Positions 5,800-31,218 of a DNA stretch of 64,000 nucleotides are shown piece by piece. Every line of letters starts with the position of its first letter. Within the stretch, counting starts at the first letter, position 1. The notes under the pieces were generated by a model. The model searched no databases. It was not told where the DNA came from and was given only the letters and a program-made list of their open reading frames with translations. The translations under genes were made by a program, and so were the position numbers. The DNA comes from a virus. The stretch is from positions 5,060 through 69,059 of the IMG/VR virus record IMGVR_UViG_3300044710_000064, one strand, 5' to 3'.

Positions 5800-6762
5800 G
5801 TGGGCATTACTTCAATCGAATGGACCGACCGCACGTGGAATCCGGTGCGCGGCTGCTCGCGCGTCTCCCAGGGATGCGTCAACTGTTACGCAGAGCGGCA
5901 AGCGGCGCGGTTCGCCGGCGAAGGAGAGCCGTTCCATCAGTTCGTCGCGAAGGTTAATGGACATCCCGCCTGGACCGGCAAAGTAGAACTGGTAGAGAAG
6001 CACTTGGAAGATCCGCTGCACTGGCGCAAGCCCTGCAAGGTATTCGTGAACTCGATGAGTGATCTGTTCCACGAGGCGCTCCTAGATGAGGCCATTGATC
6101 GCGTGTTCGCAGTAATGGCGCTATGCCCGCAGCATACGTTCCAGATTCTTACGAAGCGACCGGAGCGGATGCACGAGTATCTGTTGCGCCCCTACCGAAC
6201 AGGTGATATCCAGGTGCATGTCAAAGAGCTTATCGACGTGCATCATTTACCCGATGCGGTGAACCGCGTATTTTACGGGCGCGTGGAAGAAGCGAAAGCG
6301 CTGTTTGACCGCATACTGGCCGAGCCTGGCCCCTATCCTGAATTCTCAGACACCGACATATGGCCGCTGCGAAATGTTTGGCTCGGCGTCTCAGTAGAAG
6401 ATCAAGCCAACAAACATCGCATCGACATATTGCGCCAAGTTCCGGCTGCGGTGCGTTTCTTATCGATTGAGCCGTTGCTTGAGGACATCGGCAAATTGAA
6501 CCTTGAAGGCATCCACTGGGTGATAGTGGGCGGAGAATCAGGACCAGGCGCGCGCCCACTTAGAGTTGAGTGGGTCCGGAGTATTCAGGCGCAGTGCAGG
6601 ACCGCGGAGGTAGCGTGCTTCGTGAAGCAGCTCGGTGCTAACCCGTTTGAGGGAGGGATGCCATTGCTGCTGGAGGACCGCAAAGGTGGCGACTGGGACG
6701 AATGGACTGTTGAATTGCGGGTGCGTGAATTTCCAAAAATTCTTGCGGAGGTCTCTGCTTGA
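5800..6762 (+). CDS. DUF5131 / phage Gp37-Gp68 family radical-SAM-like protein
   Basis: TSIEWTDRTWNPVRGCSRVSQGCVNCYAE, FVNSMSDLFH, FQILTKRPERM, RFLSIEPLL, WVIVGGESG. Confidence 0.92.
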   Translation: MGITSIEWTDRTWNPVRGCSRVSQGCVNCYAERQAARFAGEGEPFHQFVAKVNGHPAWTGKVELVEKHLEDPLHWRKPCKVFVNSMSDLFHEALLDEAIDRVFAVMALCPQHTFQILTKRPERMHEYLLRPYRTGDIQVHVKELIDVHHLPDAVNRVFYGRVEEAKALFDRILAEPGPYPEFSDTDIWPLRNVWLGVSVEDQANKHRIDILRQVPAAVRFLSIEPLLEDIGKLNLEGIHWVIVGGESGPGARPLRVEWVRSIQAQCRTAEVACFVKQLGANPFEGGMPLLLEDRKGGDWDEWTVELRVREFPKILAEVSA

Positions 6763-9180: not shown

Positions 9181-9619
9181 ACTTTCAATCGTCCCCGTCT
9201 CCCTCGATGAGGCTAATGCCTTCGTGCGCGAGCACCACCGGCATCATGGCCCAGTACCGGGCGCGAAGTTCTGTATCGGGGTCGCGCTGGAAGATCGAAT
9301 CGTAGGGGTTGCGATTGTCGGCAGGCCGGTCGCACGGATGTCAGATAACGGCTGGACCCTCGAAGTAAACCGCACCTGCACGGACGGAACAAAGAACGCC
9401 AACTCTATGCTCTACGGCGCTTGCCGCCGCGCGGCCTTCGCACTAGGCTACCGAAAACTCATCACCTACACGCTGCCATCGGAGAGCGGCGATAGCCTTC
9501 GAGGGGCAGGCTGGAAGTGCCTTGGACAGGCAGGCGGTGGAAATTGGTCCCGCGTTTCAAGGCCGAGAGTTGATACGCATCCGACACAAACCAAATTGAG
9601 ATGGGAGGCCCATGCCTGA
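9173..9619 (+). CDS. XF1762-family protein (Mom-like GNAT fold, putative DNA modification)
   Basis: ANAFVREHHRHH, VGVAIVGRPVAR, LEVNRTCTDG, SMLYGAC, LITYT. Confidence 0.8.
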   Translation: MPELSIVPVSLDEANAFVREHHRHHGPVPGAKFCIGVALEDRIVGVAIVGRPVARMSDNGWTLEVNRTCTDGTKNANSMLYGACRRAAFALGYRKLITYTLPSESGDSLRGAGWKCLGQAGGGNWSRVSRPRVDTHPTQTKLRWEAHA

Positions 9620-9920
9620 ACAAAACCCCTCTTCCGATCCCATTGTCATTGTCGAGCGCATCATGACGATGCACTGGGACATCTTCGCCTGTGACTGCTG
9701 GATTTGTAAAACGGGGAGGTTAGCGGGCTGCCGACCACGGGAAGAATACTTGCGGTGGAGGGGTCATTTCAACTGGGTCGATGCATTCCATCCAGGTCCG
9801 GAAATACTACCTCCAGCGAGACCAAAAGACGATTTCAGCGAACGGCTCGAACGTATCGAGCAAAAACTAAACCAACTAATTCAGGAGGTATCCGAGCAGC
9901 CAAAGGAGAACAAAGCCTAG
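9612..9920 (+). CDS. Hypothetical protein (Cys motif plus coiled coil)
   Basis: CDCWIC..GC; RBS GGAGG. Confidence 0.55.
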   Translation: MPEQNPSSDPIVIVERIMTMHWDIFACDCWICKTGRLAGCRPREEYLRWRGHFNWVDAFHPGPEILPPARPKDDFSERLERIEQKLNQLIQEVSEQPKENKA

Positions 9921-9921
9921 C

Positions 9922-10335
9922 ATGGCCACCACAACCGTCAAGTCGGAATCGCAGCAATTGACCGAGCAACTCATCGATCAGATTGCGGCGATGCTCGCCG
10001 AGCAGACCGACAACATTCAAACCGCACTCAATAACGCAACCAAGGAGATTTTGAAACAGATGGCAACGAACGCGGATGCACTTCAGACCCAACTAGCCAC
10101 GGTCACTACCAACCTGACCGCCGTCTCTGGCTCACTAACCACAATAAACACCGGGATTCAGAATCTCGATACTCTTATCACGACTTTGCAGCAGCAGATC
10201 GCGGCGGGGAGTTCGACCCTGAGCGCGTCTGACCAAGCGGCACTAACAGCCGTGGTTAACGCTTCTTCGGCGCTGGCCACGCAAGCGGCAGCTATCAGCA
10301 CAACACCGCCGGCAGCGCCGCCGGCGAGTTCATAG
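9922..10335 (+). CDS. Ala/Thr/Gln-rich coiled-coil protein
   Basis: RBS AAGGAG; heptad pattern; Pro-rich tail. Confidence 0.7.
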   Translation: MATTTVKSESQQLTEQLIDQIAAMLAEQTDNIQTALNNATKEILKQMATNADALQTQLATVTTNLTAVSGSLTTINTGIQNLDTLITTLQQQIAAGSSTLSASDQAALTAVVNASSALATQAAAISTTPPAAPPASS

Positions 10336-10341
10336 CGAGTT

Positions 10342-10929
10342 TACTGGCGTACCGGGGAGCCACGGATCGCATAATTCCCCTGTTAGCGGGCAAGCTGCCG
10401 TGCCGGTGAAATAGCTGGCGGAAAAATTCGGCTCAGGCCCTCGCGAAACGGTAGTGAGAGCGATCACGGGCGACGATCCGGTACGCCAGTAGCGATCTCC
10501 ATGGAGCGCTACTATAACGGCGCGGCGATGCGGTTAAACCGGTCTTACTCGTTTTCGCCGGTATGTCGCGCTGGAAGTCGGACCGCTTCACTCTAACCGT
10601 GTGGTCCCGAGCGGTGGGGAAATCGGGCAAAGGTTCGGGCAACAGGCGTCACGGGTTTTGCCGGCTGATACCGTTGCCCGTTGAAAGCGGCTCGCTTGCC
10701 CGGGGGGAGTTGGGTAGGCGAGTCGCCTGAAAATGTCTGCTGGCGTCGGTGGTATTGATCCGCTGGAACCCGGAAAGACTCCCGGCTCACGCGGTTTAGT
10801 CACTACGGTTAGTTCCGTAGAGCGAAACCCTCCGGATGAAGAGCATAGCCACTACCGGCAGGTTGCGAAGGCACGCCAGCGAGTTTTTCAAGGAGTGGGC
10901 GCTGGTTTACTTGCCATTTTCCGGCGCCC
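10342..10929 (+). ncRNA. Putative large structured ncRNA or cis-RNA
   Basis: About 615-bp gene-free gap with many stems, e.g. perfect 14 bp 10342-10355/10478-10491, 17 bp with G-U pairs 10687-10726, 10739-46/10873-80, 10897-905/10921-29. Confidence 0.55.
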
Positions 10930-10951
10930 CAATTTTTAGAGAAGGAGTTTA

Positions 10952-11275
10952 ATGACCGACCTGTTACAGATTCTGCTCGACATGCGGAGCGGCCAAGTCG
11001 CGGCTGACTGCAATCTAAAATTCAACGAGGTTCTCAAGGCCGTGCTGGAAACAGGCGGCAAAGGGAAACTCACTATCGATCTATTGATCGCGCCTTCCAA
11101 GATGGGCATGGGCGGCGCGGTCGTAGAAGTCGAAACCACTCACGAGTGCAAGATGAAAAAGCCCGAACTAGCAATCGGCAAGAGCTTTTTCTTCGTCATG
11201 CCGGACGGCACTCTAACCCGCGAAGATCCGGCTCAGGCCGCGATGTTCCAACAGCAACAGGAGTTCAAAAGATAG
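10952..11275 (+). CDS. YfdP-like partner of DUF2303 protein
   Basis: AVLETGGKGKLTI...SFFFVMPDGTLTREDPAQ; RBS AAGGAG. Confidence 0.75.
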   Translation: MTDLLQILLDMRSGQVAADCNLKFNEVLKAVLETGGKGKLTIDLLIAPSKMGMGGAVVEVETTHECKMKKPELAIGKSFFFVMPDGTLTREDPAQAAMFQQQQEFKR

Positions 11276-11277
11276 CT

Positions 11278-12111
11278 ATGCAAGACATCAATCCTAAAAG
11301 TCTCAATGAACTTGTCCGCCTGGGAACCGATGCCGCGAAGCCCCGCGAAGTTCCGGGAGGAAATATCCCCTACGCTCTGGTGCCAGAAGGCTTCACCCTT
11401 CAGACGCTGGAAAACTTCATCCACAACGAACACAACGCGACTCCGGAGCGCGTTAAAGCTACCGTGTCTGTGTTGGACGCGGAGTCCTTCGTTGAATACT
11501 ACACGCTTTTTAACGATCCGAATAGTCGCATGTTCGCCGACGAGACCAATCTGAGTGTCACGGCGATTCTGGATTACCACGCGGCCGGAGAGGGAACGCC
11601 ACGCTGGGGCCACCATCGGCTCAAGTTGGGACTGCGGAAGTCGGTCGAATGGGAACGCTGGACTGGCTCTAACGGAAAGCAGCTAACCCAGCAGCAATTT
11701 GCCGAATTCCTGGAGCAGAACTCACTTGACATAAGCTCTCCTTCGCCTGCCAGCATCGTGGAAGTGGCGCGCGATCTGGACGCCCACACCGAGGTCGAAT
11801 TCGGGGCCGGTCAAAGAATGGAGAATGGGCAAGTCCGTTTCAGATACACGGAGCAGATCAAGGCCACCGTGGGCGGCGGTTCGATGGAGGTTCCGGAGCG
11901 ATTCACGCTCAGCATATCCGTATTCATCGGCGGAACTCCGATAGCGGTAGACGCGCTTCTGCGATTCCGGGTGAAGGACGGGAAACTCGTTCTGTGGTAC
12001 ACGCTCATTCGGCCCGAGCAGGCCACGCGAGACGCATTCCTGGCGATCCGCAACCAGATCGCGGACGTGCTGAAGCTCACCATCATCAACGGCACTCCCA
12101 ACCAAGGCTAA
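11278..12111 (+). CDS. DUF2303 (YfdQ-like) protein
   Basis: ESFVEY, AILDYH, WGHHR, QQQFAEFLE, VPERFTLSISVF, LLRFR. Confidence 0.85.
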   Translation: MQDINPKSLNELVRLGTDAAKPREVPGGNIPYALVPEGFTLQTLENFIHNEHNATPERVKATVSVLDAESFVEYYTLFNDPNSRMFADETNLSVTAILDYHAAGEGTPRWGHHRLKLGLRKSVEWERWTGSNGKQLTQQQFAEFLEQNSLDISSPSPASIVEVARDLDAHTEVEFGAGQRMENGQVRFRYTEQIKATVGGGSMEVPERFTLSISVFIGGTPIAVDALLRFRVKDGKLVLWYTLIRPEQATRDAFLAIRNQIADVLKLTIINGTPNQG

Positions 12112-30734: not shown

Positions 30735-30953
30735 ATGGAACTGCTGTACATCATAGTAATTCTTCTTTGTGCCGTCCCTTGTATTTGGGGAATCAACTTG
30801 ATTGTTAATCACCGTTATGCTCGGGGAAGCATTCTGGTGCTGCTCTCGTGCGGCGTTGTTGCGAGCGTCTACAGTTCCCTTCTGTTTGGGGACCCTTTGT
30901 TCTGGCGTGCTCTGTGGTTTGCCTTTAGTGGTAGGGGTAATCCATATCGCTGA
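30735..30953 (+). CDS. Antisense moron, small membrane protein
   Basis: TATGCT-N6-ATG leaderless arrangement; hydrophobic segments. Confidence 0.6.
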   Translation: MELLYIIVILLCAVPCIWGINLIVNHRYARGSILVLLSCGVVASVYSSLLFGDPLFWRALWFAFSGRGNPYR

Positions 30954-31041
30954 CTTTACGGTGGAAGTAGCAGCCCCACCTTAAACCTCAATCAACTCCA
31001 GACCAGTAGTGCTTCTTCCAGGCATCAGCTATGCTGGCGTT

Positions 31042-31218
31042 ATGAGCAATGGATGGGTCATAGCCGTGATTTGTTTTTGCACTGTAGGCGCATTCACCGG
31101 ACTAGCCACCGCTTCGGGTGCGACTACGCAAGAATTAAAAACCGTCGGGGCTGCTGTCGAATGGCTTTCGGTCGGATTTCTCTTGGCATTCGGTCTGTGG
31201 GGAATACTTGATAGATAG
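31042..31218 (+). CDS. Antisense moron, two-TM protein
   Basis: TATGCT (31030-35)-N6-ATG; two hydrophobic helices. Confidence 0.55.
   Translation: MSNGWVIAVICFCTVGAFTGLATASGATTQELKTVGAAVEWLSVGFLLAFGLWGILDR

Follow-up and report, generated by a model that had tools for sequence, protein, structure and literature searches.

Bacterial repeats of the type of miniature inverted-repeat transposable elements (MITEs), among them ERIC/IRU, Correia and REPIN doublets, are palindromic and are co-transcribed with operons. They are units of 100-150 nucleotides (nt) with self-pairing ends that sit in transcribed spacers and form a long imperfect RNA hairpin; they occur in unrelated contexts, and gene callers read open reading frames (ORFs) through them. 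Here we describe a 616-nt non-coding gap in the early operon of a virus from soil, IMG/VR record IMGVR_UViG_3300044710_000064. The window that we analyzed is a 64,000-nt stretch (bases 5060-69059 of the 69,059-base record; all coordinates are those of the window), and in it the gap lies directly upstream of two genes, p107, which encodes a protein of 107 amino acids (aa), and DUF2303. The account that we favor, at somewhat short of an even chance, is that portable palindromic modules, specific to this lineage, were inserted here and are transcribed with the operon.

Other described systems bear on such a locus. ROOL and GOLLD are phage-carried, non-coding RNAs of ~600 nt with many helices, situated in or near the place of phage tRNA genes, and these families rest on hundreds of covarying homologues. 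The put (HK022) and EAR elements are processive antitermination RNAs, which act in cis as structured RNA within an operon, upstream of terminators; put measures ~70 nt. The mycobacteriophage mobile elements (MPMEs) have an ORF of ~120 codons. MPME1 is an ultra-small phage mobile element of 439 bp with an inverted repeat and 6 bp added at insertion (PMC3029335), and MPME insertion in mycobacteriophages was proved by empty sites in near-identical genomes (PMC3029335).

The gap would share with MPME1 and MPME2 the character of a phage insertion of ~0.4-0.5 kb, terminal inverted repeats, a 6-bp junction peculiarity and variable presence among related phages. The likeness is one of form, with no sequence similarity expected, and the frames of the gap, at most 87 codons, are shorter than the MPME ORF. 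Like ERIC, Correia and REPIN repeats, the gap holds units of 100-150 nt with self-pairing ends, predicted to pair as RNA in a spacer that would be transcribed, and one unit recurs in an unrelated context as an ORF probably read through it by a gene caller. Unlike those repeats, each module was seen in one copy only in the sequence searched, and no similarity to a described family was found. The gap resembles ROOL and GOLLD in its size, its carriage by a phage, its many helices without coding capacity and its position at a tRNA slot; neither family, however, is among its Rfam matches even at E up to 10, and its structure signal is patchy. The put and EAR elements are much smaller than the gap, which has no match to their models, no nearby promoter in a promoter scan and no conservation with the genes downstream.

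The gap is real and non-coding

No other run lacking an ORF of at least 100 aa is as long as the gap in the + strand early block. Its G+C content is 0.58-0.63; its + strand is richer in G than in C over the full length, and richer in T than in A over the 3' half. The record contains the sequence only once. No stop-to-stop frame is longer than 87 codons, and the translations are arginine-rich and unlike proteins. By codon log-odds, with 25 long ORFs from the window as the training set, all six frames score ~0 across 10320-10920, compared with 0.3-0.5 for p137, the gene upstream, whose signal is the strongest in the neighborhood, and 0.25-0.32 for p107. The neighboring small gene p102 also scores ~0, and the codon test alone is therefore not decisive. 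None of the seven gap ORFs has a PHROG match at E<0.1. Two gap frames were used as protein queries; one retrieved only the window's own 38-aa ORF and the other retrieved nothing. This 38-aa ORF (10836-10952) ends in TAATG on the start of p107 and is called in the protein collection, where it is a singleton.

The sole sequencing run listed with the stretch is a DNA run of a soil metagenome, possibly its source, and no RNA run is listed. Logan contigs of that run cover 9600-10889 and 10941-11700 with no differences from the window. A promoter scan of the gap found no sigma-70-like promoter. A literature string search for the gap returned unrelated primer matches only, and a search of the DUF2303 literature gave no upstream RNA among the matches listed. 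We conclude that the gap is real and non-coding. The two Logan contigs break at 10889/10941, exactly across the terminator-like hairpin at the end of the gap, which the IMG assembly alone bridges.

Two modules share their ends

Two parts of the gap are closed by inverted repeats, domain 1 at its 5' end and domain 2 toward its 3' end (Table 1). The word CTGGCGT is found 17 times in the window, against 8.45 expected. Four of these occurrences are in the gap, arranged as one inverted pair closing domain 1 and another closing domain 2; since CTGGCGT...ACGCCAG closes both, the two domains share their ends. The 14-bp stem of domain 1, which carries CTGGCGT/ACGCCAG, is the only perfect inverted repeat of at least 14 nt within 200 nt in the 64 kb, and by our arithmetic ~0.05 such repeats are expected per 64 kb. 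In domain 2, the closing GCUGGC/GCCAGC has a pair probability of 0.98, and when the full length is folded, TGAAAA/TTTTCA (10728-10733/10885-10890) lengthens the stem. Terminal inverted repeats of the MITE type are thus found in both, as 14 perfect bp in domain 1 and as GCTGGCGT/ACGCCAGC with TGAAAA/TTTTCA in domain 2.

A 9-nt direct repeat, AGCGAGTTT, brackets the two domains. Excising the 544 nt between its copies yields an ordinary junction, consisting of the p137 stop, a ~70-nt spacer with the terminator-like hairpin, AAGGAG and ATG.

The single homologue of domain 2

An exhaustive search of 1.84 billion representative proteins, with the + frame translation of 10718-10936 as the query, gave two matches passing E 0.001. 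One of these, P0126, is a repeat artefact. The other, P0127 (88 aa, E 2.3e-5), comes from a 522-nt ENA contig, an unrelated metagenome fragment, and is a singleton at 90% identity. When P0127 was compared with the whole window by tblastn, it matched 10739-10882 only (E 1e-12). The match consists of two blocks, the first at 10739-10786 (15 of 16 residues identical) and the second at 10844-10879 (11 of 12 identical). The interior between them, 10787-10843, is variable: its 19 codons are replaced in P0127 by 11 unrelated residues (8 codons shorter), and the part that is missing covers a small hairpin at 10803-10820. The flanks of P0127, 40 residues on the N-terminal side of the match and 8 on the C-terminal side, resemble no frame of the window.

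The limits of the similarity are those of the domain 2 inverted repeat, and the two conserved blocks pair with each other, which is odd for a protein and expected for a palindromic nucleic-acid element. The search thus revealed no conserved protein-coding frame, the match being confined to the core that the inverted repeat bounds, and P0127 itself is probably a miscalled ORF across a domain 2-like element. Domain 2 behaves as a portable unit, since an unrelated metagenome fragment has almost the same arms between different flanks. No further copies of domain 2 or P0127 were found in viral contigs (two patterns and the alignment of the frame with P0127) or, by tblastn, in phages and plasmids.

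The gap is missing from related loci

There are 173 relatives of the DUF2303 protein at E <=1e-20, many of them at 50-88% identity. We compared 20 metagenome and 12 viral loci, one Paracoccus phage record and three Lessievirus records. Conservation extends to the p107-DUF2303 pair and to none of the genes upstream of the gap. Of the loci, 21 have enough flank for a comparison of the 616 nt upstream of the p107 homologue, some of them near-duplicates (L012/13/14, L019/20 and L009/10). In all 21, the longest run without a + strand ORF of at least 60 aa is 0-178 nt, compared with 397 nt in the window.

At the nucleotide level none of the 32 loci resembles the gap (best blastn E 0.3; nothing by nhmmer), and the same is true of two complete related phage records, whose overlap with the window is limited to this gene pair or little beyond it. 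In blastn against phages and plasmids the gap had no match, and one scan of genome contigs gave no relative. Since the gap is missing from every retrievable relative, it is not a conserved companion of the yfdQ/DUF2303 genes. Closer relatives by protein are p107 at >=90% identity on Logan contigs (40.9 and 40.2 kb) and DUF2303 at 88%.

The biggest uncovered runs among the loci are those of Lessievirus phages, where the slot holds a tRNA-Ser. In three of three Lessievirus records (BcepIL02, JC1 and DC1) the tRNA-Ser lies directly upstream of the p107 homologue, and two of the three records have an annotated terminator behind the tRNA. RNA genes can therefore occupy this slot. The order of RNA element, terminator-type hairpin, p107 homologue and DUF2303 is the same as in the window; the Lessievirus slot differs in that it contains an ordinary tRNA of 87-89 nt after a Cro-like regulator gene, whereas the gap has no tRNA and an unrelated gene upstream. 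The tRNA-Ser slots lie at L003:7204-7328, L046:1308-1436 and L047:1310-1396.

In one IMG/VR phage contig (L050:2501-2980) residues 1-44 of the p107 homologue (80% identity) are joined directly to residues 159-274 of DUF2303, an in-frame fusion of the two genes or a deletion within them; a DUF5131 homologue follows.

Structure resides in separate elements

Based on the + strand, the gap folds at -264.1 kcal/mol (z -3.21, with none of 20 shuffles as good), and based on the - strand at -227.7 kcal/mol (z -1.96, one of 20 shuffles as good). As a genomic control, 207 windows of 616 nt across the 64 kb were folded and base composition was regressed out. On this scale the gap has z -2.68, below all 202 background windows (minimum -2.58); the three 616-nt windows that overlap it rank 1-3, and its - strand has z -1.34. 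In windows of 150 nt, the gap averages about -1 standard deviation (SD) relative to background, its best window is the 10th of 2555, and some coding windows fold better than the gap. The 14-bp stem and a 17-bp stem both fall in 1% of the window, a part chosen beforehand because it lacks genes, which argues that the structure is more than chance. We take the structure to be that of separate elements with ordinary sequence between them, not one 590-nt fold.

The elements differ widely in stability and in strand preference. Domain 1 folds at -73.5 kcal/mol on the + strand (z -4.95, 0 of 200 shuffles as good) and at -61.8 on the - strand (z -3.46), and its closing helix has a mean pair probability of 0.91. 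The central stretch that follows is within the range of shuffled sequence (z -0.44, 65 of 200 as good). The hairpin at 10636-10680 reaches -23.9 kcal/mol (z -3.52, 1 of 200 as good), with the - strand nearly equal (z -3.55). The 17-bp hairpin folds at -30.5 kcal/mol on the + strand (z -6.31) and at -15.2 on the - strand (z -3.09), being strand-specific because of its five G-U pairs. No U-run lies 3' of it, and neither strand of the window has a longer uninterrupted hairpin; stems of at least 17 bp appear in one of 20 whole-window block shuffles.

Domain 2 folds at -51.8 kcal/mol on the + strand (z -1.55) and better on the - strand (-57.2, z -2.76); folding at least as well on the - strand is expected of a palindrome that exists at the DNA level. 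The last hairpin, 10897-10929, has -18.3 kcal/mol, z -3.17 and a pair probability of 0.97. Eight of its 9 bp are G-C, CAAUUUUU follows directly, and the terminator-like element ends 14 nt 5' of the p107 ATG. A consensus terminator scan omits this hairpin because the loop limit of the scan is 8 nt and the loop has 15.

An earlier note on this DNA had described a large non-coding gap in the early operon, possibly a single 590-nt RNA, nearly all of which can pair. The gap is there, without coding signal, as are the stems that the note named: the 14-bp stem, CGGGCAAC/GTTGCCCG, the 17-bp hairpin, the closing stem of 10739-10880 and the last hairpin. Its folding energy also stands out from shuffles and from the background windows alike. 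The statement on pairing does not set the gap apart: that much pairing is typical of any sequence of 60% G+C, and 10492-10635 has no excess of it. The second multibranch domain proposed at 10739-10880 has its closing stem, but folds better on the opposite strand. Similarly, the G-U bias toward the + strand is found in domain 1 and the 17-bp hairpin and fails in domain 2. A single 590-nt RNA is not supported, as the excess of structure comes from modules that stand apart.

Known RNA families

Across the whole window, none of the 4227 models of Rfam 15 (among them tmRNA, RNase P, introns, riboswitches, ROOL, GOLLD, HEARO, EAR and C4) reached its gathering score. Relaxing E to 10 gave three matches in 10200-11050, with 17.2, 16.5 and 15.0 bits against cut-offs of 37.5, 30 and 50. 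ARAGORN predicted no tRNA or transfer-messenger RNA genes in the window. There is no match to the reverse transcriptase family PF00078 at E up to 1 in the record, and control genomes do match. The lack of a reverse transcriptase in the record excludes retrons, diversity-generating retroelements and intact group II introns, and we dropped these three as identities for the gap. The earlier note could not match the region to tmRNA, RNase P, introns or common riboswitches, and the searches agree. Its suggestion of a put/EAR-like role received no positive evidence, with no model match at E up to 10, and the homologues that it proposed to collect upstream of DUF2303 genes are absent in 21 of 21 loci.

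A proposed insert of palindromic modules

In the account that we favor, small non-autonomous elements like MITEs, REPINs or ERIC, either mobile or of cassette type, would have landed in the spacer upstream of p107-DUF2303. The insert would be laid out as domain 1, ~250 nt with three strong hairpins, and domain 2, while the terminator-like hairpin may belong to the original short intergenic spacer. Since it lies inside a + strand operon, the insert would be transcribed, and its transcript would fold into stable RNA domains that punctuate the early transcript. The punctuation could consist of pausing or termination at 10897-10937, and of RNase III/E processing, or 3' protection of the upstream message, at the long stems. 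Four observations are new with respect to the earlier note: the gap is missing from 21 comparison loci, the two domains have the same terminal words, a 9-nt direct repeat is flush with them and domain 2 has a homologue. Taken together, the shared words, the flush repeat and the lone recurring module make a mobile palindromic element at least as likely as a dedicated RNA gene. Mobility, transcription and any effect on the operon are inferences.

Several points weigh against this account. The comparison loci are distant (p107 identity <=80%), so the absence of the gap from them neither dates nor proves an insertion. A covariance model of domain 2 misses domain 1 and the interiors of the two domains align poorly, so their kinship rests on short words; homology beyond these words was considered and rejected. 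The AGCGAGTTT repeat is flush for the composite of both domains rather than for the modules singly, and a third GAGTTT lies at 10945. We give the repeat limited weight because of this third occurrence and because it was found post hoc among several boundaries. Searches of the 69-kb record and of 338 kb from related loci, by the domain 2 covariance model and by blastn, detected no second copy of either module, so that the multi-copy hallmark of MITEs is missing in the sequence searched. We know of no transposase with ends that match the modules.

Two further points on the same side concern the level at which selection may act. Selection on RNA, and not on DNA alone, is indicated by the five G-U pairs in the 17-bp hairpin and by the better + strand fold of domain 1. 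The two residue changes in the conserved blocks of P0127 map to 10759, a predicted bulge (unpaired probability 0.88), and to 10869, in a predicted four-base loop; changes at predicted unpaired bases would also fit an RNA gene.

Alternative explanations

The gap might instead be a dedicated cassette of one or more stable structured non-coding RNAs, a new family made from the early transcript, ended by the terminator-like hairpin and acting in trans, for example as a decoy, a regulator or an anti-defence RNA. We regard this as the main rival, possible if on balance improbable. It would account for a + strand that folds better than any other 616-nt window, for the + strand-specific G-U pairs (5 of 17 in the central hairpin) and the strand difference of domain 1, for a terminator-like hairpin with a U-run at the end of the region, and for the position in the slot that holds tRNA-Ser in Lessievirus phages. 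Relative to P0127, domain 2 keeps its pairing arms and varies its internal hairpin, with both changes in the blocks at unpaired bases, and the ORF across domain 2 appears unprotein-like to a language model (recognition 1260, against the usual 2300). However, the single homologue is available as a translation only and so offers no covariation evidence, and no promoter-like site was found in the gap. Parts of the gap fold like shuffles, domain 2 prefers the - strand, the gap is missing from all retrievable relatives, and the sole run listed with the stretch is DNA.

The insert and the RNA cassette both fit the observations and are not mutually exclusive. Under both, the element would be active as RNA or single-stranded nucleic acid, not as protein. 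A stronger version, in which the gap founds a new modular structured RNA family of soil phages, of the size of ROOL and GOLLD and in a tRNA slot, with domain 2 as an independent RNA unit found also in other soil organisms or phages, set free from the early transcript and acting in trans, perhaps on translation or against a host defence, is one that we doubt.

The gap is unlikely to be leftover or neutral DNA, that is, a decayed gene or a recombination scar in which stems arise by chance at 60% G+C. Such DNA would explain why the gap stays near -1 SD at 150 nt while some coding windows fold better, why 10492-10635 and 10739-10880 are within shuffle range, why a stem of at least 17 bp appears in 1 of 20 shuffled windows, and why the gap is without a retrievable DNA homologue. 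It would not explain two independent improbable stems in 1% of the window chosen for another reason, or a P0127 match whose boundaries are exactly those of the closing stem. Nor was a protein remnant detected: tblastn of the ORFs of relatives against the gap remained at noise level, and in alignment to the neighboring genes the best score was reached by 7 of 200 shuffles. This last test concerned a decayed 3' end of p107 in domain 1, a candidate that we rejected on that local alignment and on matches of 16-18 nt to the p107 ends of eight relatives (E 1-4). The pieces of domain 1 that resemble the p107 3' end (...TRDDPAQA...) are 10467-10489 and 10427-10439, in swapped order and without significance.

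A cis-acting leader of p107-DUF2303, which would control the terminator-like hairpin by attenuation, by antitermination of the put/EAR type or in the manner of a riboswitch, is quite improbable. The gap does lie directly upstream of the ribosome-binding site and ends in a hairpin with a U-run, and alternative pairings are possible among the four CTGGCGT/ACGCCAG words. But the gene pair does without the gap in all 21 other loci, no riboswitch, leader or EAR model matches at E up to 10, 616 nt is about eight times the size of put, and an upstream promoter was not found.

We consider it very improbable that a small protein, encoded by a 68-codon ORF at 10733-10939 with P0127 as its relative, is real and the RNA structure incidental. 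The protein-level match is significant, with two well conserved blocks, and in both sequences an ATG lies a few codons 5' of the first block. Against this, no Shine-Dalgarno sequence precedes 10733, the codon score is 0.02-0.04, and exact look-up found no 68-aa product in the protein collection, where the overlapping 38-aa ORF in another frame is present. The N- and C-terminal parts are unrelated to P0127, the similarity has the limits of the inverted repeat, the conserved blocks are complementary to each other, and the protein-atlas recognition score is low, with no cluster.

A site that acts at the DNA level (operators, an origin or a recombination site) could use four copies of one 7-mer in 616 nt, arranged as CTGGCGT half-sites in two inverted pairs whose perfect Watson-Crick arms work equally on both strands. 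We consider such a site very improbable. The half-sites of a pair lie ~125-130 bp apart instead of side by side, G-U pairs like those of the central hairpin would have no meaning in duplex DNA, iterons and A+T-rich stretches are lacking, and the integrase gene ends 2.3 kb away.

Setting and neighboring genes

The + strand early block extends from the window start to ~19 kb and includes genes for a DUF5131 protein, a tyrosine integrase, DUF2303, a Dam-type methylase, DUF1064 and small unknown proteins. The - strand block contains lambda-type head genes (gpA terminase, lambda-family portal, S49 protease and capsid E). The features of the gap and its neighbors are collected in Table 1.

Table 1 Features of the gap and of the genes on either side (window coordinates)
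Feature	Position	Strand	Details
p137 (137 aa, coiled-coil-like, no family)	9922..10335	+	ORF; stop 10333-10335, 6 nt 5' of first stem
Left copy of 9-nt direct repeat AGCGAGTTT	10334..10342		Flush with domain 1 5' end; read from the sequence
Whole non-coding gap, 616 nt	10336..10951	+	From p137 stop (10333-10335) to ATG at 10952
Domain 1, 150-nt multibranch domain	10342..10491	+	Closed by perfect 14-bp stem 10342-10355/10478-10491
Central stretch	10492..10635	+	Helix 10518-10527/10564-10573, probability 0.96
Hairpin closed by CGGGCAAC/GTTGCCCG	10636..10680 (10636-43/10673-80)	+	Mean pair probability 0.97
17-bp uninterrupted hairpin, 6-nt loop	10687..10726	+	Pair probability 0.98, five G-U pairs
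Domain 2, 142-nt module	10739..10880		Closed by GCTGGCGT/ACGCCAGC; sole part with a relative elsewhere (P0127)
Right copy of 9-nt direct repeat AGCGAGTTT	10878..10886		Overlaps last 3 nt of domain 2 stem, runs into T-run
Terminator-like element	10897..10937	+	9-bp stem GGGCGCTGG/CCGGCGCCC, 15-nt loop, then CAATTTTT
Shine-Dalgarno AAGGAG and ATG of p107	10942..10954	+	Read directly from the letters
p107 (107 aa, phrog_204)	10952-11275	+	PHROGs E 1.6e-17
DUF2303/YfdQ	11278-12111	+	Pfam PF10065 E 3.7e-56; p107-DUF2303 pair (10952..12111) present in relatives

In Pfam and PADLOC, p137 has weak matches of coiled-coil type only, and no relatives of it were found in viral contigs. It is missing from the protein collection under three ATG starts (9922, 9991 and 10060). 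The DUF5131 protein (5800-6762), by the integrase, matches two PADLOC candidate-defence models, PDC-M41B (E 4e-83) and PDC-M30B (E 2e-81). A defence-system context for the gap was rejected after the PADLOC check.

Elsewhere in the window, two small and very hydrophobic + strand ORFs (72 and 69 aa) lie at 30735-31218, in a 0.8-kb stretch between huge - strand tail genes. The pair is possibly a membrane-protein moron, and CTGGCGT occurs twice there too.

Significance

Phage genomes are tightly packed, and 0.6 kb without a gene therefore needs a reason. Domain 2 (10739-10880), with its defined arms and one relative outside the record, is a concrete handle with which nucleotide and covariance-model searches can be seeded. 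If the modules are RNA genes, they would represent a new structured RNA family from uncultured soil phages. If they are mobile, the gap would be a rare, datable case of palindromic elements invading a phage operon and reshaping its transcript.

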